Positions 11,671 through 40,681 of a stretch of DNA of 64,000 bases are shown one piece after another. A model generated the notes under the pieces. The model did not search any database and had not been told where the DNA came from. It worked only from the letters and a program-made list of their open reading frames with translations. The first letter of the stretch is position 1; each line of letters starts with the position of its first letter. The position numbers were made by a program, and so were the translations under genes. This stretch comes from Candidatus Doudnabacteria bacterium (GTDB taxonomy: Bacteria > Patescibacteriota > Doudnabacteria > UBA920): positions 510,305-574,304 of the forward strand of contig CAVYGQ010000001.1 of assembly GCA_963768175.1 (NCBI GenBank), given 5' to 3'.

Positions 11671-11746
11671 GGGTTGGTAGCTCAGTTGGTAGAGCAGCGG
11701 CCTCTTAAGCCGCTTGTCGTGGGTTCGATCCCCACCCAACCCACCA
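11671..11746 (+). tRNA. tRNA-Lys(CTT), CCA encoded
   Basis: Hand fold: acceptor GGGTTGG/CCAACCC, D-arm GCTCAGTTGGTAGAGC, anticodon stem GCGGC/GCCGC with loop CTCTTAA, T-arm GTGGGTTCGATCCCCAC, then ACCA. Confidence 0.9.
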
Positions 11747-11937
11747 AGTCAAAACATTCAGGATTTTCAGTATACTTTTTTGGGCGACGCTGTGCGTCGC
11801 CCATTGTGTCTATGGGGAAAACTGCAATTCACGATTTTTTAAAAACAGGTTCAGTAGGAATTCCGACCCAATAAAAAATCGCCTACCCAAAAAAGCAATA
11901 GATAATGCTTTCTATTCTATAACTATCCTAACAAGCT

Positions 11938-14035: not shown

Positions 14036-14039
14036 CGCT

Positions 14040-20005: not shown

Positions 20006-20030
20006 AAAAGAATAAATTACAAATGAAACG

Positions 20031-20780: not shown

Positions 20781-20784
20781 AAAT

Positions 20785-21603: not shown

Positions 21604-22808
21604 TATTTTGCTAATGTAACTTCCTCATTAGATTTACCAAAAACTGTTTGCTTAAAAAACCGCCAAAGCTTAACCGGCCAATCTTTGTCCATGCACGGCC
21701 GCTCGATTAACAAATAAAACACCCCGCAAAACACCAAAACGCATGGTAACATAATAGCAGATTGGACCAATAAAGTCAGCGGGTAAGAGCCGGCGAAACG
21801 GATAAAGGTAATATGGTTGCCTACGGCCGAGATTACGGTGTCATGCCACAAATAAATGGAATAGCACATGCCGCCAATGATGGCTAGCCAGCGCAGACTA
21901 AAAATCCGTTTCCATAGTCCGTCCGTTAAGGCCAGCATAAAAACCCCAAAGAGCAAAACTATAAAAATATACTCATTGTATAAATGGGAATATAAATCCA
22001 GATAAGGCATGGCGGCCAGCATCAGCAGCCCCCCCGTAAAACTTAAGGAGCGGCTAATTTTAAGTTGCCAGCCATTAAGGTAAAAATCCAGCAGCAAAAA
22101 TCCGAGCAAAAAATATTGGATAAAATTATAGACCGCCAAATACGGCGTCGGAAAGATATGCTGAAGCAGGATCGCCAAAACAATTGCGTTTGTTAAAATT
22201 GTCCTGCGGTAAATTTTCGGCAGCTTTAAGATTAGCACCAAAACAGGCAACAAAATATAAAATTGAATTTCTATTTCCAACGACCAAAGCACCGGCGACA
22301 GCGGCGTTTGGTTAACGAACAAAATATTGTGCATGTAAATTAAAGACGAACCGACAACCGGAAATAAGCCCCAAAAACTTTTGTCCGGAAAAAATGAGCC
22401 AAACTGGTGGCTGCCGAAAAAAACCAGCAACACGGCCAAAGCCAAAACCGTTAAAATGTAAGGCGGCTCCAGCCTGGTCAGTCTCCGCAAAAAATATTTT
22501 TTTATGCTGACCGGTTTGCCGTTTTGCCAAAAAGCTTTGGCAAACGGCATAGCCAAAATAAAACCGCTGATGGCAAAAAACAGCAGCACTCCTTTGCGAC
22601 CGTTAATATAAAACATATAATAAAGCGGCCAGACAGCTTGGGGCCTGACCGAGGCGGCAAAGACCACCTTGTTGGTTACAAAGGTATTTATGTGCTCAAA
22701 AATCACCAGCAGCAAGGCTAAAAACCTTAAACCGTCTATTTGGGGGATGAACGCGGTGGAGACGGTTTTGCGCTGCAGGTGGCTGTATAAATCGCCAATT
22801 TTAAACAT
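21603..22808 (-). CDS. Acyltransferase family 3 (OatA-like membrane O-acyltransferase)
   Basis: About 10 TM helices; conserved H and R near the N-terminus (FEHINTF). Confidence 0.65.
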   Translation of the reverse strand: MFKIGDLYSHLQRKTVSTAFIPQIDGLRFLALLLVIFEHINTFVTNKVVFAASVRPQAVWPLYYMFYINGRKGVLLFFAISGFILAMPFAKAFWQNGKPVSIKKYFLRRLTRLEPPYILTVLALAVLLVFFGSHQFGSFFPDKSFWGLFPVVGSSLIYMHNILFVNQTPLSPVLWSLEIEIQFYILLPVLVLILKLPKIYRRTILTNAIVLAILLQHIFPTPYLAVYNFIQYFLLGFLLLDFYLNGWQLKISRSLSFTGGLLMLAAMPYLDLYSHLYNEYIFIVLLFGVFMLALTDGLWKRIFSLRWLAIIGGMCYSIYLWHDTVISAVGNHITFIRFAGSYPLTLLVQSAIMLPCVLVFCGVFYLLIERPCMDKDWPVKLWRFFKQTVFGKSNEEVTLAK

Positions 22809-22859
22809 ATAATTGTCAGAGTTTACGCCGTCCCTAAAAGCGGCGACGTGGTACTCATG

Positions 22860-23594
22860 TCATTTCGTGAATTCAAACATCCCGCAGGCATACCAAGCCT
22901 GTTCGTAATCTTGCCATTGGGTGTTTTCGTAATACCTGCCGTCGTCCCCGACCGCGGAAAAACTTAAAAGCTTAAGGCCGGAAAAATATTCCAAAATGGT
23001 TTTGGGGTTGTGCACGCGGTGGGCGTTAAAATAAGTAGCGGGCTTGCCCACCGGCAAAGCAAAATACAGCTTGCCGCCCGGGGCCAAAACCCGCGCCAGC
23101 TCCAAGCAGGCTTTTTGCGTGCCCAGCGGATCCAAGGGGTCGCCGTACCTGCCCAGACCGATGTGCTCGGCCACGTGCAGGCAGGACAAAGACTTTAAGG
23201 AATTATCCGGATACGGCATGGCCAAAATACTGCCTTGGGTAACTTCAAAATTGTCAAAGTCCGGCTTCACCGGCCTGATATCCACAAAAGTGGTAGGGGC
23301 AACCGTAGAGGCCATGGACAAAAAACGGATGGACGAACCCACGTCCACATGGTTGCTTGGCCGGGCATGTTGCAAAAATTTAAACGCCCAGCGGTCCATA
23401 TAAACATAATGCTTGTCAAAAGTATGTGACGAGGGGTCTTTATCAAAAACCAAAGGCAATACGTAAAAAGGCGTGCGGATATTTTCGCTCCTTAACATGG
23501 CGCGGTATTTAAACAAGTCGCGTCCATACCAAAACGGGGCTTTAATTAAAGCCTTAAGTAGGCGCCAAATTCTGCGAAAAATCTTTTTTATCAT
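22860..23594 (-). CDS. Putative SAM-dependent methyltransferase (DUF268-like)
   Basis: VDVGSS motif I-like and a D/E acidic loop. Weak assignment. Confidence 0.35.
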   Translation of the reverse strand: MIKKIFRRIWRLLKALIKAPFWYGRDLFKYRAMLRSENIRTPFYVLPLVFDKDPSSHTFDKHYVYMDRWAFKFLQHARPSNHVDVGSSIRFLSMASTVAPTTFVDIRPVKPDFDNFEVTQGSILAMPYPDNSLKSLSCLHVAEHIGLGRYGDPLDPLGTQKACLELARVLAPGGKLYFALPVGKPATYFNAHRVHNPKTILEYFSGLKLLSFSAVGDDGRYYENTQWQDYEQAWYACGMFEFTK

Positions 23595-23694
23595 AACCTT
23601 TTCAGAATTTACAGGGTAAAAGGGTAAAATAAACTCTAAGGTAAGCCGGAGCTACTTTTACAGTTGATAAAATTCCTGAGGGGTAACTTTAAAT

Positions 23695-24615
23695 TCAATC
23701 TTTTATAACGTCTAAAAATTTTTGGGCAACAACCGCATTGGTAAAATTTTGCAGATGATATTGCCGGGGAGAAAAATTATTGATTTGCGATAAGAAACCC
23801 TCCAGCCTGTCTGCGAAATCTTCGCTGCCGGAAAAAAACACTCCCACCTGCGAGGTTAAATAAGGCGCCGGGCTGCTGGTTTGCCATTCATAATTTTTTG
23901 TTTTTAAATGGCCGCCACTGTACACCAAAGTAGGAACATTAAACATCCAGGCCTCATGCAGGGCCAGCCCCTGGCTTTCGGAAGCCGATAAAAAAACCAT
24001 AAACTTACTCTTGGCCAACTTTTTTAAATAATCAACCCTGGCGTATTTCCCGTATTCTGCCACAAAATAAGGAATTTTTCTTGCGACCAAAACCTTAAGT
24101 ACTGCCAAAAAAGTTTTATTGTCGGGATTTTTTTTATAAACCACACAGCCGGTCCGTTCTTTAGCCAGGACGGTATCGGCCAAAGTTTCCACGCCAGCGG
24201 CCCAAACCCGGATTTTTTGCTTGAATCCGGGGTGAAAAGAATCGCAATACTCGCCGACCCATGGACTGGGCACCAAATAAACATCAATTTCCGGATGGTA
24301 AATAAGGCCCTTGTGCTGAAGCGGGAACGAAGTAATCCCCGGACCGGCAACAATCTTTTTTATTAAACCAGCTTGCTTCTTTTTGATGATTGCTTTAAGC
24401 GTGAAAGCGCCGCTAATCACACATGCGACGTCTATGGGCTGAGCCAAAGGCTGATTCAGAAAAAAAGGGACGTTAAGCTCCCGCAGTCCGCTGTACAAAC
24501 TTTGCTCCATGGCGCCAAGGCCTCCCCGGCTACGGCCGATCAGTTTTTTTACCCAATTTTTCGCCGCCCCCCGCGCGGTAAAAGCCTCGTCAAAAATATA
24601 TAACGGTTGCTCCAT
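23695..24615 (-). CDS. Putative GT-B fold glycosyltransferase, short form
   Basis: ESQGLALHEAW E-x7-E-like motif in the C-terminal half. Confidence 0.4.
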   Translation of the reverse strand: MEQPLYIFDEAFTARGAAKNWVKKLIGRSRGGLGAMEQSLYSGLRELNVPFFLNQPLAQPIDVACVISGAFTLKAIIKKKQAGLIKKIVAGPGITSFPLQHKGLIYHPEIDVYLVPSPWVGEYCDSFHPGFKQKIRVWAAGVETLADTVLAKERTGCVVYKKNPDNKTFLAVLKVLVARKIPYFVAEYGKYARVDYLKKLAKSKFMVFLSASESQGLALHEAWMFNVPTLVYSGGHLKTKNYEWQTSSPAPYLTSQVGVFFSGSEDFADRLEGFLSQINNFSPRQYHLQNFTNAVVAQKFLDVIKD

Positions 24616-24620
24616 ATTAA

Positions 24621-25232
24621 TTATTTGGGTTTGCGCCCGTGCCTGGCCGCAATATGGTCAAAATAATCCTGGAAGTAACTGGTAATCAAATGCAGTATCG
24701 CGTTGTGTACGCTTTCCACCACGGAATATTTTCCGGCTTGGGTTTTGATTAAAATTTTTGCGTCGGCAAGTTTGTTAAGCTGCCCGCCGGTAAAGCCCGA
24801 CAAGCCGATAACCGGAATATGCCGGCTTTTGGCCAGCTCCACGGCCTTAATAATGTTTTTAGACTTACCGGAACTGCTGATGGCAATAACGCAGTCGCTT
24901 TCCTGCAGGTAATTCTGCAGGGGTCCGGCAAAAACCATTTCATAACCCACGTCATTGGCCCAGGCGGACAGCTCCTCTTCCGTGCTCGGCAAGCGCATAG
25001 TCTGAAAGCGCTTGGTTTGGGAGCTTAAATTGTGGTCAAACACCGTTTTATTGAAATCCGCCACCCAGTGCGTGGCCATGGCCAGCGATCCGCCATTGCC
25101 GAAAACATAAATCCGCCCGTCCCGCTCGTAAACCGATTGGATAATATTAATAGCCTTGGCTATTTCTTCCGCGGGCAATTGTTTTAACTGCAACGCCACT
25201 TCGTCCGCGAATTTTTCAATATAGTTAAGCAT
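24621..25232 (-). CDS. gmhA: Phosphoheptose isomerase (SIS domain)
   Basis: VFGNGGSLAMATH...SSSG SIS motifs; 203 aa. Confidence 0.7.
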   Translation of the reverse strand: MLNYIEKFADEVALQLKQLPAEEIAKAINIIQSVYERDGRIYVFGNGGSLAMATHWVADFNKTVFDHNLSSQTKRFQTMRLPSTEEELSAWANDVGYEMVFAGPLQNYLQESDCVIAISSSGKSKNIIKAVELAKSRHIPVIGLSGFTGGQLNKLADAKILIKTQAGKYSVVESVHNAILHLITSYFQDYFDHIAARHGRKPK

Positions 25233-25269
25233 AAATATTCATAGAAAAATTTAATTATTAACCGAAGAA

Positions 25270-26265
25270 TTAAATAATATATCCACGCCGGATTGGGAAA
25301 ATCCAAACGGGATTTCCCAAGACTTCCCGTAATTTATTTTTTTTCGCCTGCTTGTCCAAAACGGCTTTTATCTTTTCGTGATTTCTTGGCGGAGCCAAAA
25401 ACAGCAGGCAGCCGCCGCCGCCAGCTCCCAAAATTTTTCCGCCCCAGGCACCGGCCTTTATACCGGTTTCATATAAAGAGTCAATCTGCGTATTACTGAC
25501 GTTCACGCCTAGGCTTTTTTTCCTAAGCCAGCCCTCGTGGAGCATTTCCGCGGCCGCCTTAAAATTGCCGGCTACGATATAATCCCGGAATTTCGGCACG
25601 GAATCGGACATTTTTTTATAGGTTTCAAAATTTTCGGAAACTTTTTTGCTCTGTTCGCCCAGCACGCTGGAAGCATTTCTGGTTATGCCAGTATAATAAA
25701 GCAGTAAGTGGTCTTCCAAAGCGGTCCGGACTTTAAAATCCAAAAACACCGGTTCAACCAAAACGCTGCCGTCGGGATTAAAAGTTATAACGTTAAAACC
25801 ACCAAAAGCCGCCGCGTATTGGTCCTGCTTGCCTATAGGTTCCTTTAAAATATCAATTTCCAACCGGCTGGCGGCTTCCGCGGCTTGGGCTTTGCCGATG
25901 GTCTTGCCCATATAAGCATTCAGAGCCTTAATTAGCGCCACGGAAAAACTGGAAGATGAGCCGAGCCCGGTTTTTGCGGGCAAATCCATAAACGAAGCAA
26001 TTTCCATACCCTTGCTAACCAAGCCTAAATCCAGCAAAGACTCCCGGAAACGGTCATGAATTAAGTCTTTCGGGTGTTTAACGACTTCCGTTTCCCGATA
26101 CTTCATTATGAACTCATGCAAAAAATCCGCCGGGTTTACCACAATGTAAACAAACTTGTCTATGGTGGTGGAAATTACCCTGCCCGGATAGCGGCTGTAA
26201 AAACTTTTTAAGTCGGTCCCTCCTCCCACAAAGCTTATCCGTAAAGGCGCGCGCGCGATAATCAT
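25270..26265 (-). CDS. hddA: GHMP kinase, D-glycero-alpha-D-manno-heptose 7-phosphate kinase-like
   Basis: RAPLRISFVGGGTDL N-terminus and the GHMP motif PAKTGLGSSSS. Confidence 0.7.
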   Translation of the reverse strand: MIIARAPLRISFVGGGTDLKSFYSRYPGRVISTTIDKFVYIVVNPADFLHEFIMKYRETEVVKHPKDLIHDRFRESLLDLGLVSKGMEIASFMDLPAKTGLGSSSSFSVALIKALNAYMGKTIGKAQAAEAASRLEIDILKEPIGKQDQYAAAFGGFNVITFNPDGSVLVEPVFLDFKVRTALEDHLLLYYTGITRNASSVLGEQSKKVSENFETYKKMSDSVPKFRDYIVAGNFKAAAEMLHEGWLRKKSLGVNVSNTQIDSLYETGIKAGAWGGKILGAGGGGCLLFLAPPRNHEKIKAVLDKQAKKNKLREVLGNPVWIFPIRRGYII

Positions 26266-26327
26266 AGTTTTTAAATTAAATCATACTTTATTAAGTTTAG
26301 CATTTTCCCGCAAACTTGAAAACCGCC

Positions 26328-27686
26328 CTATTTTGGGCGGTTTTGATCTCTTTTACCGGTAATTTCCCGAGTCGCGCTTAAAACATTTTTATAGATTCTA
26401 AAAAGTTTTTTCGTGCCAAATTTGTTGTCGTGGCAGGCGTAACCCGTGGCCACGCCCAAAAATTTGACCCCGGAGTTTTCCGCGGTTTTGGCGTCGCGGC
26501 AGGAGTCGCCGATAAAAAAACTTTTTTTCAAATTTATGTTTAAATCCCCGGCTGCCTGCCTGACCAGGCCGATTTTTGGCTTGCGGCATTCGCAATCAAT
26601 GGCATACTTTTTTACCGGATGCAGCACCGTGCCGTCTGCTTTATGGTGCGGGCAAACGTATATGGCGTCCAAAAAAGCACCCCTTTGGCCCAACTCCCAT
26701 TCCAGTTTGTTGTGGATTTCCCTAACTCCTGCTTCGGTAATATACCCGCGGGCAATTTGCGGCTGGTTGGTTAAAACAACGGCCAAAACTCCGGCCTCGT
26801 TCAGCAGCCGCACGGCTTTTGCCGCAAAAGGATAAATATGCAAATCTTCCAAACGGCTTAACTGGTTAACTTCTTTATTTAAGACGCCGTCGCGGTCTAA
26901 AAACACGGCGGGCCGCGCGGATTTAAAACTGCCTTTAGCAAATTTCCCCTGCGCGAAATCCCGCCTGACCTGGAGCAGGCGCTTAGGCGTGCCCATGTCT
27001 TTAAAATATTCAGCCGACCGATAAGCCAACAGCACCTTGCCTTGCGCAAGCAGCTTGGGAAAAATTGTATGGCCCAAATCCGAGCCTTGATATTTTTTTA
27101 AATAGGGAAAAATTTTCGGGCTTAAAATCCGCGCGCCGGTGGTGACTAAATTTTGGAAGCTTTGCCCTGGTGGATGTGGCTTGGTATGGAAAGCCACAAT
27201 ACAATGAGTGTCGTCCTCTTCCACCAAATCGCTGTCAAACGGATGGTTATTGGGGTGGACTACCAAACTGGCAATTTGCCCGCGGCGATTCTGACGGTGG
27301 AAATTAACAAAACGCGAAATATCAAAATTCATCATTACGTCACCATATAGCAGTAAAAAATCATCCTTAATTTTGCCGCTTAGCGCGGCCACGCGGTCGG
27401 CCGTATTCATCTCCACCGGCCCCTGGCTAAGATGCAGGCGCATGCCGAACCGGCGGCCACTGCCGCAATATTCAGCAATCTTTTCCGCCAAATAGCCGGT
27501 CAAGATATAAACGTCTTTAATGCCGGCACCGGCCAAAAGGCGCAGCTGGTGCTCAAGTACTGGCTTGCCGAAAACGGGTACAAGCGGCTTAGGTAATTTT
27601 TTGGTCAGGCGGCCAAGGCGCTTCCCCTGCCCGCCGGCTAAAATTACAGCTTTCATAATTTTTTTATTTTTTCTGATAAGCGCCAA
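26328..27686 (-). CDS. Bifunctional protein: N-terminal sugar-1-phosphate nucleotidyltransferase (HddC-like) fused to a C-terminal HAD-IIIA D,D-heptose 1,7-bisphosphate phosphatase (GmhB-like)
   Basis: N-terminus AVILAGGQGKRL...KPLVPV. C-terminus VFLDRDGVLN...CPHH...CRKPK. Confidence 0.7.
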   Translation of the reverse strand: MALIRKNKKIMKAVILAGGQGKRLGRLTKKLPKPLVPVFGKPVLEHQLRLLAGAGIKDVYILTGYLAEKIAEYCGSGRRFGMRLHLSQGPVEMNTADRVAALSGKIKDDFLLLYGDVMMNFDISRFVNFHRQNRRGQIASLVVHPNNHPFDSDLVEEDDTHCIVAFHTKPHPPGQSFQNLVTTGARILSPKIFPYLKKYQGSDLGHTIFPKLLAQGKVLLAYRSAEYFKDMGTPKRLLQVRRDFAQGKFAKGSFKSARPAVFLDRDGVLNKEVNQLSRLEDLHIYPFAAKAVRLLNEAGVLAVVLTNQPQIARGYITEAGVREIHNKLEWELGQRGAFLDAIYVCPHHKADGTVLHPVKKYAIDCECRKPKIGLVRQAAGDLNINLKKSFFIGDSCRDAKTAENSGVKFLGVATGYACHDNKFGTKKLFRIYKNVLSATREITGKRDQNRPK

Positions 27687-28435
27687 GAGCGGAATCCTAA
27701 AATAGCATTGGCTAATTTCGCCAAAGGATAGCGGCCGGCAAACATCTTAATTAATAATTGCTGTTTACGGTAAAAACCCAAAAGTTTTTCCGGAGAATAG
27801 CTTGGCACGCGGTAATCAGTATAAACTTCTTGGCTATTGTGCATTTGGCCCAAAAGTCCCAGCCGCAGCCAGCAATAATAATCTTCCGCGTAATCGTTTT
27901 CCAAAAAAATAAATCCGCCGGCCCGCTCAGCCGCCTCCCTCCGAAACATAACCGTGGATGTGAAAAAATTATTTCGCAGCAGCATGGTGCGGCGGATGCT
28001 CCAGTCGGCTTGCACGCGGAATTTAATTCCCAAAAATTTGCCGCTGTCGTCTACTTTCCTGACACCCGCCCCAAGCAAAACCACGCCGCTATGGCTGTTT
28101 AAAAAGGCTGCTTGCTTGGCAAGCTTGTTTTTGTCAATCCAAACATCATCGTCATCCAATGCGGCTACAAAAGCTCCGCGGCAAGCTTTTAGTACCCGCT
28201 GGCGGTTTTCGGTAATGCTAACTTGCGGATTATGGTAAAGGCGGGTAATCGGTATCCCCTGGGACTGCAACTGTTCAATGACTTCCCGGGTGTTGTCGGT
28301 AGAATTATTATCGCCCACCACGATTTCAAAATCGCCAAAGCTTTGCCCAGCCGCGCTTAACACCGCCCGTTTCAGCAATTTTGAACGGTTGTAGGTAAGG
28401 ATCATCACGGAAACTTGCGGAATGGTTTGGTTCAT
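27653..28435 (-). CDS. Glycosyltransferase family 2
   Basis: VSVMILTYNRS...DNNSTDNT and a DDDD motif. A paralog of the 20031 gene (shared RTMLLRNNFFTSTVMF). Confidence 0.7.
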   Translation of the reverse strand: MNQTIPQVSVMILTYNRSKLLKRAVLSAAGQSFGDFEIVVGDNNSTDNTREVIEQLQSQGIPITRLYHNPQVSITENRQRVLKACRGAFVAALDDDDVWIDKNKLAKQAAFLNSHSGVVLLGAGVRKVDDSGKFLGIKFRVQADWSIRRTMLLRNNFFTSTVMFRREAAERAGGFIFLENDYAEDYYCWLRLGLLGQMHNSQEVYTDYRVPSYSPEKLLGFYRKQQLLIKMFAGRYPLAKLANAILGFRSWRLSEKIKKL

Positions 28436-29325
28436 AAAATAAATGTCTCGATCAATTTAGCGTGGACTTTTGTGTGCAGAGCCAAATACATGCTGACGCC
28501 GTCGGGAACGGCTTTTGGCAGGCCGGCTATTTCCGACAACTTCTCCCCCGCCTGCAAAAAGATCCGGTAACCCAGCTGATTTAAAAACTCAAAAGTCTTA
28601 TTAAAATTTTGGTTATAAAAATTGCCGGCTTTAATTGTCTTGGCGGACTCATACCAAATTACCGGCTTAAACGAGCCCAAAAGACCGGCACAGCCCTGCA
28701 GGACATCCAGTTCCAGCCCTTCCACGTCAATTTTCATAAAATCCGGGCCAGGTAAGTTTTCCGCCTTGGCAAAATCATCCAGCCTTACAATTTTTACCGT
28801 CCTGGACGCCCCAGCCTGCTTGCCCACAAATTCCCGGTTAAAACTGCTGCCGGTGCCGGCCAAAAATATTTGCTGCTGACCGTTTTGGTTGCTTAAGCCC
28901 ACATTGTAAACTTTGCAAAGATTCTCCAGCCGGTTTAATTTTATGGTTTCTTCCTCCACCCGTTTAAACTCCAATACCGGTTCAAAAGCGTAGCTGCTTA
29001 TTTTCCCCTGCCCTAAAAAAGCCGCCAAAATGCCGAAATATCCGGTGTTGGCGCCGACATCAAAAAAAGTCAGGCGTGGCTTTTCCGCAAGCAGGTATTG
29101 TAACAAATTGGTAACCAGCTTGCTGCCGTCTGCCTCTATTACGCCATTAGACAAAATGCCGTTGGCAATGTCAGAGCTGTCCAATATCCAACCCGCGTAC
29201 CAAAAGCCCAAAGACGACTTCACCGCGGTCAGGGTGTTTTGGCTGGCTTTGGGGAAATAGGCAATTTTTTTGCCCGTCAGCTTTTCCAAAACTTTTAAAA
29301 ATTTGGTAAAAATAAATTGCTTCAT
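28432..29325 (-). CDS. FkbM-family methyltransferase
   Basis: FFDVGANTGYFG motif. Confidence 0.6.
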   Translation of the reverse strand: MKQFIFTKFLKVLEKLTGKKIAYFPKASQNTLTAVKSSLGFWYAGWILDSSDIANGILSNGVIEADGSKLVTNLLQYLLAEKPRLTFFDVGANTGYFGILAAFLGQGKISSYAFEPVLEFKRVEEETIKLNRLENLCKVYNVGLSNQNGQQQIFLAGTGSSFNREFVGKQAGASRTVKIVRLDDFAKAENLPGPDFMKIDVEGLELDVLQGCAGLLGSFKPVIWYESAKTIKAGNFYNQNFNKTFEFLNQLGYRIFLQAGEKLSEIAGLPKAVPDGVSMYLALHTKVHAKLIETFIL

Positions 29326-29329
29326 GTAT

Positions 29330-29935
29330 TTACTTTGCCATTGACTCCCACTTGGTCTGCCGGATTTTTAACCTCGGGTCGGAAACCAGTAAATGCCAAA
29401 TTACCGCCTGAAAGCCTTCGGTGTGCGGGGTAATTTTGTCCGCTCCGGCCTCGGGCACCAAAACGCAGGCGTCCGCGACTTCGGCCGTATACCCGCCTTT
29501 GGGCCCGACAATCCCGCCGATTTTGCAGCCGACTGTCTTGCCGTATGCCAAAGCCTCAACCAGATTCGGGCTGATATTTTTTTCCTTGTTGCCGCCGCCG
29601 ACGGAAAAAACCAGCAGCATATCCTGGGACCGAAGTTTGCTGCCCTTGAGCCATTCCACAAACACGCTGGCCCAGCCTTCGTCGTTGACTCTAGCCGTAA
29701 GTTCGGAAGCGTTGTCCGTGGGCACATAAGTTTCTATGCCGCAAATCTTGCGGAAATCGCAGGACGCGTGTGAAGCATGCCCCGCTCCGCCGCCCACGCC
29801 CAAAATAAACAGACGCCCCCCCTTGCCACGCGTGTCCGCGAGCAAATTAATCAAGCTGTCAATGCTGGGCACGTCCAGTTTGGAAATAATTTCTGCCGAT
29901 TCCTGTAAATATTGTTTGATGAAATCTTGCGTCAT
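29330..29935 (-). CDS. SIS-domain sugar-phosphate isomerase (second GmhA-like paralog)
   Basis: LFILGVGGGAGHASHASCDF with an SIS fold. Confidence 0.65.
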   Translation of the reverse strand: MTQDFIKQYLQESAEIISKLDVPSIDSLINLLADTRGKGGRLFILGVGGGAGHASHASCDFRKICGIETYVPTDNASELTARVNDEGWASVFVEWLKGSKLRSQDMLLVFSVGGGNKEKNISPNLVEALAYGKTVGCKIGGIVGPKGGYTAEVADACVLVPEAGADKITPHTEGFQAVIWHLLVSDPRLKIRQTKWESMAK

Positions 29936-29939
29936 AAAT

Positions 29940-30986
29940 TTAAACCATTAATTTTTTAATTTTTTCCAACTTGTTACTTTTAGCGGAGCAGTATAAAGCT
30001 TCCAAAGCCAAAACGACTTCAACGTTGTCTTGGGCGCTGGCCAAAGGCTGACGCTTTAAAATAATTGCCTGTCTGAATTCCTTCCACTCTTCCTTCCAGG
30101 AAACATCTTCCCCGACAAACTCAAAAATTTCTTCCAAAGGCGCGCGCCCCTGCCCGACATCCGTGCCTAAGGTTAAAGTCTCTACCCCATAGCTTTTGCC
30201 CAGACCGTTGATAATCAAGTAGCCTTTGTTGCCGTAAATTTCAAAATTAAACCTGTTTTTCCACTGCGTCAGGCTGGCATGGAAAAAAACATTGGCGCCG
30301 CCGGCGGACTCCAAAAGGGCAAAAGAATTGTCCTCCAGCCGGCTTTTGTGCCAATATACATTCTTGTTGACGGCAAAAGCTGACTTAAACTTGCCCAAAA
30401 ACCAAAATGCCAAATCTATAATATGCACGCCTTGGTCAAACAATTCCCCTCCGGGGGAATATTTTTTTTGCATGCGCCACTCTAAATCGTAGCCTGGCCT
30501 GGCGCCATGGCCGTAAACGCTGCGGATGTACATGGCCTTGCCGATTTTACCGGCTTTGTAAAGTTCAAAAGCTTTTGCCACGGCCGGATGGTGGCGGTGG
30601 TTAAAGCCGACTTTTAAAATTTTGCCGCTCTTTTGGGCGGCCTTGCTTACGGCCAAGGCGTCCTTGGATAAACTGCCCAAAGGTTTTTCCACCAAAACAT
30701 TTTTTTTGGCCGCCAAAACTTTTAGCGCCAAGCCCAAATTAACATCGGTAGTGGCAGCAATAACCACGGCATCAACTTTGCTGTTGTTAAAAATGGCGCC
30801 TAAATCCCGGACGGCGGCCGCGTGGGCGGCATTAGCCAGGGCTTGAGCTTTTTTGAAATTGATGTCGTAAACTGCAACCACTCGGTCAGTTTTTAAATCT
30901 AAAATCGCCTGGACCCTTTTAGCCCCAATGTTGCCGGCGCCGATTATGGCGATGTTTAATTTACGGTTTTTTATCCCGTTAGGCAT
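29940..30986 (-). CDS. Gfo/Idh/MocA family NAD(P)-dependent oxidoreductase
   Basis: IAIIGAGNIGAKR Rossmann motif and a Gfo/Idh/MocA C-terminal domain. Confidence 0.7.
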   Translation of the reverse strand: MPNGIKNRKLNIAIIGAGNIGAKRVQAILDLKTDRVVAVYDINFKKAQALANAAHAAAVRDLGAIFNNSKVDAVVIAATTDVNLGLALKVLAAKKNVLVEKPLGSLSKDALAVSKAAQKSGKILKVGFNHRHHPAVAKAFELYKAGKIGKAMYIRSVYGHGARPGYDLEWRMQKKYSPGGELFDQGVHIIDLAFWFLGKFKSAFAVNKNVYWHKSRLEDNSFALLESAGGANVFFHASLTQWKNRFNFEIYGNKGYLIINGLGKSYGVETLTLGTDVGQGRAPLEEIFEFVGEDVSWKEEWKEFRQAIILKRQPLASAQDNVEVVLALEALYCSAKSNKLEKIKKLMV

Positions 30987-31057
30987 ATAATTTTATGCGC
31001 GATTTATTAATCAAACTGCTTATTTTATCTGTCTTTGTTCCCCGATAAACGAAATGT

Positions 31058-31915
31058 CTAATGGGATTCATAAAAATATTTGTTATCAATTCTCCTTAAA
31101 GTATAGCTCGAATTTCGATTAATTTCGTCCACTATTTTTTTGCTGAATGTTTTCCAACCGTCCCACTTGACGGATATCAACTTGCCGGTTAGGTTATGGG
31201 ATTTGGTGGAACATAAAAATAAAATCAGTTCCGCCGCCAGTTCGGCGGAATCTCCGCCGCTTTGCTTTTGTTTTAAGGCCGCGTAGAATTCGCTGTCCCC
31301 GGCTTTTTTGCCGGCTTTTAAAGTTTCTGCTAAAAACTTGGTGTTAATCGCCCCCGGCGCAATGGAGTTAACCTGAATATGGTATTTCTCGTACTCCCGC
31401 GCCAAATTTTCCGTCAGTCTGACTACCGCGGCTTTGGAAACGGCATAGGCGCTAAAATTCGGCCGCGGCTGTACTGCGCCGCCGCCCGACATATTAATAA
31501 TTTTCCCGCTTTTCTGTTTGGCCATTTTCGGCAATACCGCCATGGCCATATGCACCGTCCCTAAAAGGTTTATGGCAATTGTTTTTTGCCAATCCTTAGC
31601 CGAAACTTTAGCGGTCTCCCCCACCGGCCCCAATATTCCGGCGCAATTTACCAAAACGTCAACCCGTTTGAATTTGGATAAAACTTTTTTTACCGCCGCC
31701 CGGGCCTGCCGAAAATCTGAAACATCGGCAGCCACTGTCAAACAAGGGGAAATAGCCAATAAAATTTTTGCGGCCGTGTTTAATTTTGCGCGGCTGCGAC
31801 CAACTAAGGCCACAGACGCACCGGCTTTGGCAAAAGCCAAAGCCGCGGCCCAGCCGATGCCGCTGGCGCCTCCGGTTATTACCACAACTTTATTTTTAAA
31901 TTCTTTTCCCGTCAT
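31058..31915 (-). CDS. Short-chain dehydrogenase/reductase (SDR)
   Basis: VVVITGGASGIG, NAG, and YxxxK (YAVSKAA) motifs. Confidence 0.75.
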   Translation of the reverse strand: MTGKEFKNKVVVITGGASGIGWAAALAFAKAGASVALVGRSRAKLNTAAKILLAISPCLTVAADVSDFRQARAAVKKVLSKFKRVDVLVNCAGILGPVGETAKVSAKDWQKTIAINLLGTVHMAMAVLPKMAKQKSGKIINMSGGGAVQPRPNFSAYAVSKAAVVRLTENLAREYEKYHIQVNSIAPGAINTKFLAETLKAGKKAGDSEFYAALKQKQSGGDSAELAAELILFLCSTKSHNLTGKLISVKWDGWKTFSKKIVDEINRNSSYTLRRIDNKYFYESH

Positions 31916-31919
31916 AATT

Positions 31920-32909
31920 TTAAATTTTGGAAATTACCTCCGCCCCCTCAAGGCTAAATTTATACGGCATTTGGGTCATGCCCGCGTGTTGCATAATTTT
32001 TATAAAACTCTCCCGTTCTTTGGGGACAAAAAACAAAAACAGCCCGCCACCGCCGCTGCCCATAATCTTCCCGCCTTCGGCGCCGTTTTTTAAGGCCAAA
32101 TCGTACAGTCCATCCAGCCACGGGTCCGACATTTTGGCGGAGATGGTTTTTTTGGTCAGCCAATGCTCGTGCAACAGTTTGCCGAAATTTTTTATGCTGC
32201 CTTTTTCCATTTCGGCTTTCAGCTGCCGGCCAATGTCTTTAATTTTGAGCATGGCGGTTTCCGTCTGCGAGCCGCTGATTTTGGCTTTTTCACTTTGCTC
32301 CTGCAGAATGCTGACGGTGTCGTGCTTTTGATGGGTATAAAAAATTAAGGTTTTTTGCTCCAACTCGCTAATTAACTCTTGGCTGAAATTTGGCCGCCTG
32401 ACTTCCACTTTTCCATTTTTTTCTATTTCCATTTCCACAAACCCGCCAAAAGCAGCTAAATATTGGTCCTGCTTGCCCACTGGCTTATTTAAAATATCCA
32501 CTTCTATATGGTAAGCCAGCTCGGCCAAATCCTGCGGCCCAATGTCCTTTCCCTGCCAAGCGTACAAAGCTTTTAACAAACCGACAATATAACTGCCCGA
32601 AGAGCCCATGCCGGTGCCGGGAGGCAAATCTGCAAACGAGACAATTTCCATTCCCTGGGCCGGGATTTGCACGGCTTTTAAAGATTCCCTGGCTAAATCG
32701 TGCTTAACTTCCTCCAGAGTATTGGCAACTTCGGCATCGGAGTGAGTTACGCGGATTAAATTTTCCACCGCGGACTTGTTTAGCCCAATGTACAGATATT
32801 TGTCTATGGTGGCGCTGAACAAAAACCCGCCGTGCTTTTGATAAAAAGCCGGTAAATCCGTGCCCCCGCCGCCTAGGGGGATCCTAAAAGGCGTTCGTGT
32901 AATAATCAT
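31920..32909 (-). CDS. GHMP sugar kinase (second heptose-7-P kinase-like paralog)
   Basis: RTPFRIPLGGGGTDL...PPGTGMGSSGS. Confidence 0.7.
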   Translation of the reverse strand: MIITRTPFRIPLGGGGTDLPAFYQKHGGFLFSATIDKYLYIGLNKSAVENLIRVTHSDAEVANTLEEVKHDLARESLKAVQIPAQGMEIVSFADLPPGTGMGSSGSYIVGLLKALYAWQGKDIGPQDLAELAYHIEVDILNKPVGKQDQYLAAFGGFVEMEIEKNGKVEVRRPNFSQELISELEQKTLIFYTHQKHDTVSILQEQSEKAKISGSQTETAMLKIKDIGRQLKAEMEKGSIKNFGKLLHEHWLTKKTISAKMSDPWLDGLYDLALKNGAEGGKIMGSGGGGLFLFFVPKERESFIKIMQHAGMTQMPYKFSLEGAEVISKI

Positions 32910-33619
32910 TTGCCGATAAAATATTGGTTAGCTTTTTCTAAATATTCCAAAGTATCCACCCCAAATAATGCTTCTTTAGGGTCAATAATGTAGGCCTGAA
33001 GTGGCATTTGCTGTTTTAACATTTCGGGAAAAACTTCTTTGCCAAAATCATAAAACCGATTTTCGGGAATAAGCTTAAATATTTCCGGCGTGCATTTGTA
33101 AACCCCGCCGTTTACGTAAGGGATTTCGGGCCGGCTGATGCCTTCGTAAAAGCCGGTTATTAAACCGTCGCTGACTTCCACTACCCCGCCGGCCGCGCCG
33201 CTGTTGGGGTTAACCGTCCGATCAAACAATAATACGGAACACGCGGACTTTAGAGGCTGATTCGCAATTCCCAAAAAATCCAGATCAAAAACATTGTCGC
33301 CGTAAACCACTAAAAATTCTCTTTCGTCCGTAAACTCGTCTTCAACTTTTTTTAAGCCTCCAGCAGTGCCCAAAATTTCCGGTTCAAAAGAATATTTTAT
33401 TTCAACGCCCCACTTGCCGCCGTTGCCAAAATAATTCGGCACCGCCTCCGGAAAATAATGGGTGTTAATTACCAAATCCCCGACGCCGGCCTTTTTTAGC
33501 TGGCCAATGGTCCGCTCCAAAATTTTTTTGCCCCCGACCTCCAACATAACTTTGGGCTGGCTTTCAGTAAGAGGCCGAAGGCGCGTGCCCAAACCAGCGG
33601 CTAAAATAAAAGCTTTCAT
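32906..33619 (-). CDS. Sugar-1-phosphate nucleotidyltransferase
   Basis: KAFILAAGLGTRLRPLT...KVM N-terminal motif. Confidence 0.65.
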   Translation of the reverse strand: MKAFILAAGLGTRLRPLTESQPKVMLEVGGKKILERTIGQLKKAGVGDLVINTHYFPEAVPNYFGNGGKWGVEIKYSFEPEILGTAGGLKKVEDEFTDEREFLVVYGDNVFDLDFLGIANQPLKSACSVLLFDRTVNPNSGAAGGVVEVSDGLITGFYEGISRPEIPYVNGGVYKCTPEIFKLIPENRFYDFGKEVFPEMLKQQMPLQAYIIDPKEALFGVDTLEYLEKANQYFIGK

Positions 33620-34557
33620 TTTCCTGATACGTACTGCTTAATGTAATCTATACTTTCCTGCAATCCCTGCTCCAAAGAGGTTTTCGGCTCCCAGCCAAGC
33701 GCTTTGGCCTTGGTAATATCCGCCAAATTTTCCTGGGCTTCGCCTTCCAAATTAGGCTTAAATTCCGGTTCCAATTTACTGCCAATTAACCTTTGGATGA
33801 TTTGGAAAATTTCCAAAACGGAAACATTTTTCCCGGTGCCCAAATTATATACCTGGCCGTTGGTTCGGTCGTCGTCCATGGCTAACATATGAAAGTCGTT
33901 TATGTCGTCCACATAAATAAAATCGCGGCGTTTGCTGCCGTCGCCGTAAATTACCGGCCTTTCGCCCTTTAAAAGTTTGATAATAAAGGCGGAAAACACC
34001 GGCGGAATGCTGCGGCGGTAATCCTGCCTTGGCCCATATACATTAAAATAACGCAGGGCCGTGGTTTTTATCCCGGAAAAACGTTCAAAGCCTTGGGCAA
34101 AATATTTGGAAGCCATTTTGGCGCAGGCGTAAAAACTTTCCGGATGCTCGTCCTCTTCCGGGGTTGGTAAAATTTTACTGCCTTCGTAAATGGCGGAACT
34201 TTCCGCGTAAATTACCTTCCTGACTTTAGCGGCTACGGCGGCGACAAAAATGTTTACCGTACCGGTCACGTTAATGTCCGCGGTCTCTACGGGATCTTTT
34301 TGGCAATCGGAAATAGAATTTTTCGCGGCCATATGGAAAACCGTATCCACGCCTTTAAATACCGGATAAATATCTTTGGAGCGGATATCCAATTTGTAAA
34401 ACTTGACGCCCTGGGGAATTTGCTCTTTTGGCCCGTAAGCTAAATTATCTATCCCCAAAACTTCATAGCCTTCTTTTAAAAGCCGGTCTGCCAAATTGCT
34501 GCCGATGAATCCGGCCACTCCTGTAATTAATACTTTTTTTGGCATAAATTTAAGCAA
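33616..34557 (-). CDS. NAD-dependent epimerase/dehydratase (extended SDR)
   Basis: VLITGVAGFIGS Rossmann motif and YxxxK. Confidence 0.75.
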   Translation of the reverse strand: MLKFMPKKVLITGVAGFIGSNLADRLLKEGYEVLGIDNLAYGPKEQIPQGVKFYKLDIRSKDIYPVFKGVDTVFHMAAKNSISDCQKDPVETADINVTGTVNIFVAAVAAKVRKVIYAESSAIYEGSKILPTPEEDEHPESFYACAKMASKYFAQGFERFSGIKTTALRYFNVYGPRQDYRRSIPPVFSAFIIKLLKGERPVIYGDGSKRRDFIYVDDINDFHMLAMDDDRTNGQVYNLGTGKNVSVLEIFQIIQRLIGSKLEPEFKPNLEGEAQENLADITKAKALGWEPKTSLEQGLQESIDYIKQYVSGK

Positions 34558-34623
34558 TAAATCTAATGAAAACTAACTAATCTTACCATAAATTAGCCGG
34601 ATTCACAAACAAGGCGACCGTTT

Positions 34624-35265
34624 TTATTTTACAATTTCCAATATTTCTTTTAAACTTTTTGCCTCGTAAAATGCCGGTTTTTTAAAATTTTTATCAGCGG
34701 CGGGATATTTGTAATCCTTATTATATTCTGTGCGGATAAAAATATTTTTTGTGCCCGCGGCAATCCCCGCTTCCATATCCTTGCCCGAATCTCCCACCGT
34801 GTAGCATTCCGCCAAATCCAAATGATAATCTTTGGCCGCATCCAAAAGCAACCCGGGTTTCGGCTTGCGGCAATTGCAGTTGTCGGCTTTATCATGCGGA
34901 CAGACATAAATTGCATCTATGGCCGGGATGTTGGTCTTTAAAAAATCATTCATTCTCATCAGTTCTTCCCAGCTCATCTTTTTCCGTGCCACGTCCGGCT
35001 GGTTGGTATGGACAATATTCAGCCACCCGCGCATTTTCAGCTCGTTTAAAACTTCCGCAGCGCCGGCCACCAGCTTGAAATCCTCAAATTTTTGCGGGCC
35101 GACGTTTTTTTCACCATCAAAGGGCCTAAACGCCAAAACGTGGTTTAGCACGCCGTCGCGATCCCAGAGAATTGCTTTACCCCGCCCCACTTTTCCCAAA
35201 TTTTTGTTTATACCCATAAAATATTTTTTTGATTTATTAAACTCCCAAATTGAAATCTCTTCCAT
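34624..35265 (-). CDS. gmhB: HAD-IIIA phosphatase, D,D-heptose 1,7-bisphosphate phosphatase-like (second GmhB paralog)
   Basis: ILWDRDGVLN...CPHDKADNCNCRKPKPG zinc-binding motif. Confidence 0.65.
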   Translation of the reverse strand: MEEISIWEFNKSKKYFMGINKNLGKVGRGKAILWDRDGVLNHVLAFRPFDGEKNVGPQKFEDFKLVAGAAEVLNELKMRGWLNIVHTNQPDVARKKMSWEELMRMNDFLKTNIPAIDAIYVCPHDKADNCNCRKPKPGLLLDAAKDYHLDLAECYTVGDSGKDMEAGIAAGTKNIFIRTEYNKDYKYPAADKNFKKPAFYEAKSLKEILEIVK

Positions 35266-35282: not shown

Positions 35283-36506
35283 TTATTCATAATAAAACTT
35301 CCTTATAAAATTATACGTCTTGGGAAATTTAAGGGTAAATAATTTCCCCCAAAAAAACGGCATGGCTTTTAAATTATGCCAATATAAAATTATATAACCC
35401 TTAACTTTACCGAAAAAAGTGTTGTGGTAATACCTTTGGCAGGCCGCCGCAAAATCCGCGTTAATTTTTTTGCTCCATTTTTCCATGCCAAAAATTTCCA
35501 GCGCCCTAGAGCGCGCCAGCTGCCCCATAGACCGAATTTGATTCTTATGCTCCACCACCCATTTCATATTTTCAAAATAAGCGTCAACATCGCCGGCCTC
35601 GCACCAGCGCGCAAACGACGGGTCAAGCAAGTCCAAATGGTCGTTGTGTACGGGCGATTTGTGGGTTAAAATCGGATTGCCAGCCAGCATAGCTTCGGCT
35701 ATTGCTATTCCGACGGTCTCGCCGTCCTTGCGGGCATGGGCCAGCACGTCTATTTCATGGTAAAACTCCGCCAGCTTGTTGAAATCGGTAATTGCCGGGC
35801 GGAACTCCATATTTTTTACGCCCAGCTCTAATGCCAACTTTTTCCAAGCCGGCGGCGGGCAAACCACAATGTATTTTACCTTATCTCCATAAGTTTCCTC
35901 GAGTTTTTTAAAAGCCTTTAGCGCAATAGGGTCAAAAATATCATCATTCCCCCGGCCAATACGGCCAAATACGACCGTGCCCGAAACCAGGGGCTTATTT
36001 AAAATTTCCGGGGAATAATCGGTAAGCGGGTTAAAAAACCATTCCACATTTTCCACTCCCCGGCTCTTTATCCTTTCTCGGTTGCCCCGGCCCGAAACAT
36101 AAACTTTGTAAACATTGCCATTGCTAAAATAATGCCCGAACGGCGAAACTAAAACCAGCGGGATGCCGGCCGGGATTCTGTTTATGGGAAATTGGTAATG
36201 GGCGAACACGGGAGTATGAACGCACTGAATTGAATATTTTTTTATGATTTGGCTCAAAGTTGGCATCATATTTAAACAGCGGAACGGCTCGCGCTCCTGC
36301 CTTTTGGAAAAACTAAACGGCACCAATATCACTCCGGCGGCTTCCAACTCTTTAGCCTCCTGCTCGTCGCGGTTTGGCCCATGGGCAAAAAATACCCGAA
36401 AGTTTGGGGCTAAAATTTTTGCTATCTGGCGCTCAAGTTTTTGCGTGCTACCGTAAAAAAATCCCTGCTCGTCAAAAATTAAAATGTTAGGTTTTAGCAT
36501 CTTCAA
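35283..36506 (-). CDS. GT-B fold glycosyltransferase (GT1/GT4-like)
   Basis: HARKDGETVGIAIAEAMLAGNPIL (E-x7-E region). Confidence 0.5.
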   Translation of the reverse strand: MKMLKPNILIFDEQGFFYGSTQKLERQIAKILAPNFRVFFAHGPNRDEQEAKELEAAGVILVPFSFSKRQEREPFRCLNMMPTLSQIIKKYSIQCVHTPVFAHYQFPINRIPAGIPLVLVSPFGHYFSNGNVYKVYVSGRGNRERIKSRGVENVEWFFNPLTDYSPEILNKPLVSGTVVFGRIGRGNDDIFDPIALKAFKKLEETYGDKVKYIVVCPPPAWKKLALELGVKNMEFRPAITDFNKLAEFYHEIDVLAHARKDGETVGIAIAEAMLAGNPILTHKSPVHNDHLDLLDPSFARWCEAGDVDAYFENMKWVVEHKNQIRSMGQLARSRALEIFGMEKWSKKINADFAAACQRYYHNTFFGKVKGYIILYWHNLKAMPFFWGKLFTLKFPKTYNFIRKFYYE

Positions 36507-40595: not shown

Positions 40596-40681
40596 AAATT
40601 TAAAAATTAAGTGCCTGCCGTTTGTAAAATACTCCACCGTTTGCTTTAATCCTTGATCAAGCCCTACCGTCGGCCGCCAGT

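Follow-up and report, generated by a model that had tools for sequence, protein, structure and literature searches.

Two nucleotide-heptose-type modules in a Doudnabacteria glycan locus, one of which belongs to a widespread, unnamed cassette

The D-alpha-D-heptose route relies on four enzymes (GmhA, HddA, GmhB and HddC), and its pairing of a kinase with a phosphatase is typical of sugars that lack a phosphomutase. Here we analyze a stretch of 64,000 nucleotides from a Candidatus Doudnabacteria bacterium (contig CAVYGQ010000001.1, positions 510,305 to 574,304; hereafter the window), in which positions 24621-35265 carry two enzyme complements of this kind, set 1 and set 2. Both sets share the four enzyme families and the predicted reaction order of the described route, and both use a GHMP-type (alpha-anomer) kinase, not an HldE-type one. 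They differ from the route in that set 1 fuses transferase and phosphatase, the set 2 isomerase (SIS2) comes from a subfamily of its own, highly conserved and altered in the phosphate loop, and set 2 is embedded with a Gfo/Idh/MocA oxidoreductase (Gfo), a short-chain dehydrogenase/reductase (SDR) and an epimerase, to which other phyla add a transaldolase and a nucleoside-diphosphate (NDP)-sugar dehydrogenase. The reading we favour, with moderate confidence, is that a mosaic glycan locus has stacked two alternative NDP-heptose modules and that set 2 leads to a redox-modified heptose. Of greater interest, set 2 is the Patescibacteria form of a very widespread, unnamed and seemingly uncharacterised cassette.

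Tailoring of an NDP-heptose after its activation, the concept that set 2 would share, is represented by Yersinia pseudotuberculosis DmhA/DmhB, Burkholderia WcbK and Campylobacter jejuni Cj1427/Cj1428/Cj1430; the enzymes are of different families, as set 2 has a Gfo/Idh/MocA protein and a classical SDR. In lincosamide biosynthesis, LmbR builds octulose-8-phosphate, which LmbN, LmbP, LmbK and LmbO carry on to GDP-octose (PMC4351081; PMC12945683). The functions assigned are transaldolase (LmbR), isomerase (LmbN), kinase (LmbP), phosphatase (LmbK) and nucleotidyltransferase (LmbO), with the epimerase LmbM and the oxidoreductases LmbL/LmbZ acting in later steps (PMC4351081). The full cassette found outside the candidate phyla radiation (CPR) has the same family inventory, a likeness at the level of enzyme families. 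The window copy differs in having neither a cassette transaldolase nor a linked aminotransferase, and in lying in a surface-glycan context instead of an antibiotic cluster.

A further parallel is oxidation of the WbpA/WbpB (WlbA) type, as an NDP-sugar dehydrogenase and a Gfo/Idh/MocA protein co-occur in many copies of the cassette. The window Gfo protein matches 3Q2K with 63 bits and 3Q2I with 47 bits, both of which we take to be WlbA structures. In contrast to that system, set 2 has no linked aminotransferase or acetyltransferase, and the window copy lacks the NDP-sugar dehydrogenase. The classical SDR as the constant partner of Gfo suggests re-reduction, and thereby epimerisation, rather than amination.

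Gene content and enzyme families of the two sets

Genes in 24621-35265 were assigned by Pfam and NCBIfam profile searches of the translated open reading frames (ORFs). All 12 ORFs of at least 195 residues lie on the minus strand, and the coordinates given by an earlier sequence-only reading coincide exactly with ORF ends:

24621-25232, minus strand: set 1 SIS isomerase GmhA1, GmhA-like (gmhA model TIGR00441, 89 bits)
25270-26265, minus strand: set 1 GHMP kinase HddA1, HddA-like (NF049969, 164 bits)
26328-27686, minus strand: set 1 NTP_transferase and HAD-IIIA fusion of HddC-GmhB type (residues 12-245 and 258-443)
27653-28435, minus strand: GT2 glycosyltransferase between the sets (Glycos_transf_2, 85 bits)
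28432-29325, minus strand: FkbM-family methyltransferase (Methyltransf_21, 72 bits; TIGR01444, 89 bits)
29330-29935, minus strand: set 2 SIS isomerase SIS2, hallmark of the conserved cassette (gmhA model, 40 bits)
29940-30986, minus strand: set 2 Gfo/Idh/MocA oxidoreductase (Pfam GFO_IDH_MocA and C3 domain)
31058-31915, minus strand: set 2 classical SDR oxidoreductase (adh_short, 187 bits)
31920-32909, minus strand: set 2 GHMP anomeric kinase GHMP2, HddA-like (NF049969, 178 bits)
32906-33619, minus strand: set 2 sugar-1-phosphate nucleotidyltransferase (Pfam NTP_transferase, 109 bits)
33616-34557, minus strand: set 2 extended SDR of the GalE-like 4-epimerase type (GalE, 155 bits)
34624-35265, minus strand: set 2 HAD-IIIA phosphatase HAD2, GmhB-like (best model PRK08942 GmhB, 120 bits)

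Each set thus has its own SIS isomerase, GHMP anomeric kinase, HAD-IIIA phosphatase and nucleotidyltransferase, so that two full complements are present; set 2 adds the Gfo/Idh/MocA oxidoreductase, the classical SDR and the GalE-like extended SDR. The gene list of the sequence-only reading, including the additional redox enzymes of set 2, is correct by both profile collections; it had left unmentioned the FkbM and GT2 genes that sit between set 2 and set 1. The FkbM product is likely a sugar O-methyltransferase.

Many of the neighbouring genes overlap by 4 nucleotides or are separated by gaps of about 5 nucleotides, which looks like a single, co-transcribed operon. Across 23.5-36.7 kb, counts of promoter- and terminator-like sites were not above those in shuffled sequence. 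The actual start of the fusion gene is probably the ATG at 27656, because a 442-residue homologue (P0124) begins 10 codons further in; likewise, HAD2 may start at an internal methionine, since its orthologues measure 178-200 residues. At 26319-26344, over the stop codon of the fusion gene, lies a GC-rich hairpin with a perfect 10-bp palindrome (AAAACCGCCC...GGGCGGTTTT), which borders the 62-nucleotide gap ahead of hddA1. It might serve as an attenuator within set 1 or as an element governing RNA stability.

For both kinases, the HddA model NF049969 (equivalog cut-off 600) leads by about 70-100 bits: the set 2 kinase scores 177.6 bits and the set 1 kinase 164.1 bits, while every other GHMP model stays at or below 95 bits (81 bits for the next family in the case of set 2). 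Comparison with solved structures gives the same picture. The set 2 kinase matches 3K85, 4N3O and 4USK with 164, 154 and 149 bits, and the set 1 kinase 4USM, 4USK and 3K85 with 157, 156 and 151 bits. Together, both match the heptose kinases of Bacteroides (3K85), C. jejuni (4N3O) and Burkholderia (WcbL, 4USK) about equally (136-164 bits), whereas mevalonate, fuco- and galactokinases reach at most 63 bits.

On the GmhA model TIGR00441 (cut-off 209.45), GmhA1 scores 88.7 bits and SIS2 40.1 bits; weak as it is, the SIS2 match is to GmhA models and structures and to no other SIS family. Alignment was made to an E. coli GmhA sequence, the numbering of which agrees with the published active-site numbering. 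In this alignment, H61, D94, S119, S124 and H180 are retained in SIS2 and GmhA1, and both proteins carry Asp in place of E65 and Glu in place of Q172.

Both phosphatases pass two HAD-IIIA domain models, with 108 and 122 bits on TIGR01656 (cut-off 84) and 74 and 103 bits on TIGR01662 (cut-off 44.6). On the GmhB equivalog PRK08942 (cut-off 178), the set 2 enzyme scores 120 bits and its set 1 counterpart 135 bits. The HddC model NF049965 (cut-off 300) gives 81.2 bits for the set 2 transferase and 48.9 bits for that of set 1. The set 2 transferase scores higher on Arch_glmU (125 bits), mannose-1-phosphate guanylyltransferase (123 bits) and MurU (115 bits), and matches the solved UTP-glucose-1-phosphate uridylyltransferase 8X7S with 109 bits. 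The full isomerase, GHMP kinase, HAD-IIIA phosphatase and nucleotidyltransferase logic of the D-alpha-D-heptose route, as the sequence-only reading had it, is present in both sets.

In both modules, the SIS isomerase would convert a ketose phosphate, presumably a C7 one, into an aldose phosphate, the GHMP kinase would then phosphorylate the anomeric position, the HAD-IIIA phosphatase would strip the terminal phosphate, and the nucleotidyltransferase would activate the sugar to an NDP-heptose.

Occurrence of the two sets in other genomes

SIS2 has homologues in more than 8000 database clusters, and the best 120, which are 64-77% identical, come from very different organisms; between phyla, identity of the protein spans 60-77%. 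A motif scan of one genome per species returned at least 587 confirmed matches, with carriers in about 15 phyla. The best 80 of these include Patescibacteria, Acidobacteriota, Verrucomicrobiota, Chlorobi and Alpha-, Beta- and Gammaproteobacteria, the proteobacterial carriers among them being Legionella, Coxiellaceae, Bradyrhizobium, Rhizobium, Rhodoblastus and Pelagibacteraceae. Further carriers belong to Cyanobacteria, Chloroflexia, Geobacteraceae, Myxococcota, Elusimicrobia, Lentisphaerae, Leptospiraceae, Methylomirabilales and Eremiobacterota.

To describe the neighbourhood of SIS2, ORFs were called in the fetched loci and searched with the window proteins. In the 53 loci with enough flank, the following genes were found within 8 kb of SIS2:

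HAD-IIIA phosphatase: 46 of 53 loci
transaldolase: 42 of 53 loci
GHMP2-type kinase: 42 of 53 loci
nucleotidyltransferase: 35 of 53 loci
Gfo homologue: 26 of 53 loci
SDR homologue: 19 of 53 loci
Gfo and SDR together: 19 of 53 loci
NDP-sugar dehydrogenase: 14 of 53 loci

The Gfo and SDR counts fit an optional modifier module, and none of these loci has a GmhA1-type gene beside SIS2. Outside the CPR, the usual order is epimerase, NDP-sugar dehydrogenase, SDR, Gfo, GHMP kinase, NTP-transferase, SIS isomerase, HAD phosphatase and transaldolase, and this order is fixed across phyla, being seen in Bradyrhizobium, Rhizobium, Leptolyngbya, Halieaceae, Geobacteraceae, Legionella, Rhodoblastus and others. 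Phosphatase and transaldolase are fused in six loci, one fusion being seen in the called genes of L001. In Thermoanaerobaculia and Acidobacteriota (L001, L012, L013, L025, L027, L045 and L056), the fusion of HAD and TAL_FSA domains is 414 residues long; it brings together steps one and four of the pathway as predicted.

With 64-77% identity to more than 100 listed cassette members, the window SIS2 fits the definition of these proteins, namely identity of 60% or more and the FILGVGG(S/G)A(G/A) and N(A/C)SHAVND-type motifs. Its neighbours are likewise those of the cassette, namely an HddA-like GHMP kinase, a HAD-IIIA phosphatase, an NTP-transferase and the Gfo and SDR pair. Literature searches aimed at the cassette turned up no description of it, and where it lies in annotated genomes its genes carry generic names only, as in Rhizobium and on plasmid 3 of Lawsonia intracellularis (L092). 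The RefSeq names in the latter are 'SIS domain-containing protein', 'HAD-IIIA family hydrolase', 'transaldolase', 'nucleotide sugar dehydrogenase', 'SDR family oxidoreductase', 'Gfo/Idh/MocA family oxidoreductase', 'galactokinase' and 'nucleotidyltransferase family protein'. The Lawsonia cassette is interrupted by a flippase-like gene with an LPG-synthase transmembrane domain (13972-14955) and bracketed by two hypothetical proteins of about 1090 residues (8530-11814 and 20366-23635), possibly giant glycosyltransferases or substrates. WP_011527335 is the Lawsonia example of a cassette-type transaldolase, and further carriers in culture are Rhizobium jaguaris CCGE525 (pRCCGE525c, around 975 kb), Rhodoblastus sphagnicola DSM 16996 and Rhizobium panacihumi KCTC 62017. 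Another variant occupies 1173-3121 of a Saccharibacteria contig (L010), where the cassette has no GHMP kinase or RmlA-type transferase. Two opposite-strand genes stand there instead, one apparently of the inositol-monophosphatase type (WDWAGA motif) and one with a HIT/GalT-like 'HAHY' motif, an arrangement that may represent an alternative activation route.

The CPR form of set 2 runs in the order GT1, HAD phosphatase, epimerase, NTP-transferase, GHMP kinase, (dehydrogenase), SDR, Gfo and SIS isomerase, with no transaldolase. The window has the same order as its CPR relatives, at 45-77% protein identity (L004 from Portnoybacteria, L007, and L008 from Doudnabacteria); HAD2 orthologues there are 57-64% identical, and L004 and L007 have extra genes inserted. 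The FkbM gene follows the SIS gene in the window, L007 and L008, and lies between GT1 and the HAD gene in L004.

Between the two sets of the window, identity is 26% for SIS2 and GmhA1, 40% for GHMP2 and HddA1, 31% for the transferase domains and 33% for the phosphatase domains, values that exclude a recent duplication. The relatives show each set on its own. More specifically, the synteny of L007 with the window extends through Bac_transf, pilB (82% identical), pilC and pilM, in the order GT2, GT1, set 2, FkbM, unk306, AcylT3, GT2, Bac_transf and PilB; it lacks set 1, the GT2 gene at the junction and the DUF268 gene. L090, in turn, on a contig of 868 kb, has set 1 (fusion protein 61% identical), then a GT1 gene, then the downstream genes of the window, and no set 2. 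Its GT1 protein, beside set 1, is 47% identical to the window GT1 protein upstream of set 2, and Bac_transf beside pilB is common to L007 and L090. This presence of one module or the other at the same site suggests interchangeable building blocks of a hypervariable locus, and the window genome has probably stacked both in a mosaic Wzx-type locus. The two parallel pathways proposed by the sequence-only reading therefore stand as two unrelated, alternative NDP-heptose-type modules and not as paralogous duplicates, given their low identity and their single occurrence in syntenic relatives.

The set 1 junction is no assembly chimera, since an independent short-read assembly (Logan ERR10755942, L091), which is 99.9% identical over window positions 18711-27919, spans the junction of GT2, set 1 and the downstream genes. 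Compared with the window, L091 has a 2-bp and a 1-bp deletion in hddA1 (L091 positions 2474 and 2594; window positions 25324 and 25446-25447), which would shift the frame across the conserved GGGG motif, and one extra base at window position 23565/23566, near the start of the DUF268 gene. Variation between strains, a pseudogenised set 1 in a sister population or a sequencing error may lie behind these differences.

The fusion architecture of set 1 (NTP_transferase and HAD-IIIA) is common in CPR bacteria, DPANN archaea and Bacteroidales. Some Bacteroidales and Woesearchaeota versions of about 624 residues (P0161, P0181, P0185, P0204 and others) carry an extra PRK/uridine-kinase domain (PF00485).

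Modifying enzymes and the possible product of set 2

The Gfo protein scores 125 bits on IolG (cut-off 355) and 87 bits on UDP-GlcNAc 3-dehydrogenase, and among solved structures it matches, with no more than 75 bits, C-2/C-3 dehydrogenases and ketoreductases of sugars or inositol. Judged by these families, it probably oxidises or reduces a secondary hydroxyl or a ketone of the ring. The classical SDR matches generic SDR models alone, all below cut-off, and always stands beside Gfo in the gene-order maps of relatives. From this adjacency and co-occurrence we infer a possible oxidise-then-reduce pair that would invert one ring hydroxyl.

The extended SDR scores 155 bits on GalE, 153 on TviC, 126 on HldD (ADP-heptose 6-epimerase) and 52 on gmd (cut-off 415). 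Its best solved match is 4ZRM, the UDP-glucose 4-epimerase of T. maritima (219 bits), and its active site reads 'AESSAIYEG...YACAK', without the Asp-Glu that follows the catalytic Ser/Thr in dehydratases. The low gmd score and the missing Asp-Glu rule it out as a 4,6-dehydratase of the GMD/DmhA type. Furthermore, Pfam found no cupin domain or epimerase of that kind among the 12 genes of 24621-35265. The analogy to the 6-deoxyheptose systems of Campylobacter and Yersinia, drawn by the sequence-only reading, is therefore not borne out.

In the reading we favour, set 1 is a compact module of the type found in CPR bacteria, DPANN archaea and Bacteroidales, with its fused transferase and phosphatase. 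In set 2, the Gfo/Idh/MocA protein and the SDR would most likely oxidise and then re-reduce, and so epimerise, a ring hydroxyl of the heptose or NDP-heptose, and the GalE-like enzyme may contribute a 4-epimerisation. The predicted product is a configurationally modified NDP-heptose, which the adjacent GT1-type transferase would install on a putative glycan acceptor and FkbM-type enzymes might O-methylate. For the cassette at large, taken as a horizontally spread unit of 7-9 genes in several hundred bacterial species, it is a tentative suggestion that it makes an undescribed nucleotide sugar, be it a redox-epimerised or uronic heptose or a C8 sugar built by its own transaldolase in the lincosamide manner.

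Several observations weigh against the favoured reading. None of the enzymes of either set reaches the curated equivalog cut-off for GmhA, HddA, GmhB or HddC. SIS2 shares just about 25% identity with known GmhA and has an altered phosphate loop (T120V, S121G and a 6-residue insertion), which makes another ketose phosphate a possible substrate. Both transferases score above HddC on UTP/GTP hexose-1-phosphate and MurU models, and GDP, which the sequence-only reading had named as the activating nucleotide for set 1, is not supported. The matches of Gfo, SDR and epimerase are generic, and another sugar of the repeat unit could be their substrate. In cassettes outside the CPR, epimerase and NDP-sugar dehydrogenase are neighbours, which hints at a distinct uronic-acid branch. 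Finally, the window copy departs from the cassette in one respect, the absence of a cassette-linked transaldolase.

The strongest alternative, though an unlikely one, is that one and the same plain NDP-heptose comes from both sets, as a result of redundancy or of a recent mosaic insertion, and that the modifiers serve other sugars of the repeat unit. The extended SDR is indeed closest to UDP-glucose and UDP-GlcNAc(A) 4-epimerases, and in other phyla it forms a pair with the NDP-sugar dehydrogenase at the edge of the cassette. About half of the cassettes have the core without Gfo and SDR, and relatives of the window genome get by on a single module. However, wherever they occur, Gfo and SDR lie inside the cassette, between kinase and isomerase in every CPR copy and between dehydrogenase and kinase in other phyla. 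In CPR copies, the epimerase gene stands between those for phosphatase and transferase, and stop and start codons overlap. In addition, two sets diverged to 26-40% identity would be an uneconomical way to one product in a genome of about 1 Mb.

We give little credence to a sugar larger than a heptose, such as an NDP-octose made by set 2 and the cassette family through a dedicated transaldolase in the manner of the lincosamide pathway. Its appeal lies in the full cassette, the families of which (TAL, SIS, GHMP, HAD, NTP-transferase, epimerase and Gfo-type) parallel the Lmb set (PMC4351081, Table 2), and in the transaldolase, which is as tightly linked to SIS2 as the kinase (42 of 53 loci each) and is fused to the phosphatase in the six cases above. 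The distance of SIS2 from canonical GmhA and its longer phosphate loop point in the same direction. Yet the cassette transaldolase passes the TIGR02134 'transaldolase' equivalog (343 bits, cut-off 282) as an ordinary transaldolase, which fits ordinary sedoheptulose-7-phosphate chemistry, and the CPR versions, including that of the window, have no such gene in the cassette. Both kinases resemble heptose kinases equally. A homologous GT1 protein stands beside one set or the other in relatives, which points to similar donors. A nearby DegT-family gene was considered as an LmbS/WbpE-like aminotransferase acting on set 2 products and rejected: it is RfbH-like (392 bits for the L007 orthologue) and belongs to a CDP-dideoxyhexose module, which leaves no LmbS-like step.

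Very improbable, lastly, is a hexose- or inositol-type pathway that merely borrows SIS, GHMP and HAD enzymes: the best NCBIfam match of Gfo is inositol 2-dehydrogenase, SIS2 has just 40 bits on gmhA and the transferase scores higher on hexose-1-phosphate and MurNAc-1-phosphate models than on HddC, but the inositol match (125 bits) is far under its cut-off of 355, SIS2 matches GmhA alone among SIS families, the kinase is clearly of HddA type, GmhB is the top-scoring model for the phosphatase, and the kinase-plus-phosphatase strategy is a hallmark of sugars without a phosphomutase. The sequence-only reading had named affinity to non-heptose pathways as what would speak against it; the core enzymes of set 2 do not bear this out, and the generic modifiers say little either way, with Gfo best on IolG and the epimerase on GalE, both far below cut-off.

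The TAL/FSA-family protein of the window (53185-53871) is 31% identical to the cassette-type transaldolase; on the Saccharibacteria contig L010, the gene for its orthologue (67% identical) immediately precedes that of the cassette phosphatase. It is a possible supplier of sedoheptulose-7-phosphate, or else a housekeeping enzyme. The supply role proposed by the sequence-only reading is plausible in the light of relatives with a cassette-linked transaldolase, although the window shows no adjacency.

The surrounding glycan locus and its biology

Both sets lie at the centre of a glycan-assembly locus of about 35 kb (about 18.7-53.9 kb), which is encoded entirely on the minus strand and holds at least eight glycosyltransferases, several methyltransferases and an acyltransferase_3. 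Features of the locus and its flanks are:

53185-53871, minus strand: TAL/FSA-family gene, first of the minus-strand array (TIGR00875, 158 bits, cut-off 246)
48880-50430, minus strand: Wzx-type flippase (Polysacc_synt_3, Polysacc_synt, MatE and MurJ matches)
39843-40637: glucose-1-phosphate cytidylyltransferase
35283-36506, minus strand: GT1/GT4-type glycosyltransferase upstream of set 2 (Glycos_transf_1)
23695-24615, minus strand: 306-residue protein without Pfam or NCBIfam match
18704-20005, minus strand: initiating phosphoglycosyl transferase, Bac_transf, at the downstream end of the locus (PF02397, 198 bits)
6155-8134, plus strand: typA
2993-4489: zwf, beyond a YtvI-like permease and about 20 kb downstream of set 1
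1972-2940: gnd

Beyond Bac_transf, the same strand carries the type IV pilus operon (pilB, pilC and pilM), then tRNAs and holA and, past the oppositely oriented typA, the permease gene, zwf and gnd. The GC content is 0.46-0.49 throughout, and base composition shows no sign of a foreign set 1. An Rfam scan of the window found two tRNAs and nothing else.

The GT1 protein encoded at 35283-36506 has orthologues of 58-69% identity upstream of the cassette in L004, L007 and L008; the gene adjoins set 2 in the CPR relatives or, in L004, lies one gene off. It is a candidate transferase for the set 2 product. The 306-residue protein has orthologues of 36-37% identity in L004, L007 and L090, downstream of either heptose module. 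It has no transmembrane segments and contains a GT-B-like motif, 'ESQGLALHEAWMFNVPTLV' ('E..G....EA'); being soluble and having this motif, it possibly represents an unrecognised, divergent family of GT-B glycosyltransferases.

At 37387-38560 on the minus strand, an RfbH-like gene for a DegT-family sugar 3-dehydrase lies in pieces, with two frame changes and an in-frame stop. The position of its catalytic Lys is occupied by His ('SFYGSHIINGAGGGG'), presumably a feature of dehydrases of the E1/ColD type, and it is accompanied by the glucose-1-phosphate cytidylyltransferase gene and two SDR genes. As the intact L007 orthologue is RfbH-like and the neighbour a cytidylyltransferase, we assign the gene to a CDP-3,6-dideoxyhexose module and not to set 2; the region is possibly a decayed module of this kind or an assembly error.

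The statement of the sequence-only reading that zwf, gnd and tal flank the locus is true at the scale of the window only. zwf and gnd stand 20 kb off, with unrelated genes in between, and the sole TAL/FSA-family gene is 18 kb upstream, at the head of the array. A tal gene beside zwf and gnd was rejected, as the DNA preceding gnd (1-1971) codes for a large surface protein rich in repeats.

Positions 1-1900 (minus strand) and 60000-64000 encode large proteins that are rich in Ser/Thr/Gly and contain repeated Ig-like segments. Probably located at the surface or associated with pili, these proteins could serve as substrates for the glycan locus. TypA is 75-80% identical to Candidatus Doudnabacteria and Patescibacteria proteins, in keeping with a CPR bacterium. 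It measures 659 residues, compared with 611-620 in most relatives, and the TypA model aligns to it in two stretches, which points to a lineage-variable insertion.

CPR bacteria are host-attached and have genomes of about 1 Mb, and a 35 kb locus that stacks two heptose modules shows the coding capacity that they spend on surface variation. The occurrence of one module or the other in relatives suggests that the site by the type IV pilus operon is a hypervariable glycan island. Heptose phosphates and NDP-heptoses are innate-immune agonists in animals, for the Doudnabacteria organism a remote consideration only.

If the cassette makes a new nucleotide sugar, a monosaccharide would be added to the bacterial glycan repertoire, and it would be present in uncultured lineages (CPR bacteria, Acidobacteriota and Verrucomicrobiota), in the veterinary pathogen Lawsonia and in plant symbionts. 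With four core enzymes and two or three modifiers, the cassette offers a tractable start for biochemical discovery. A widespread component of bacterial surface glycans would, in that case, still be chemically unknown.

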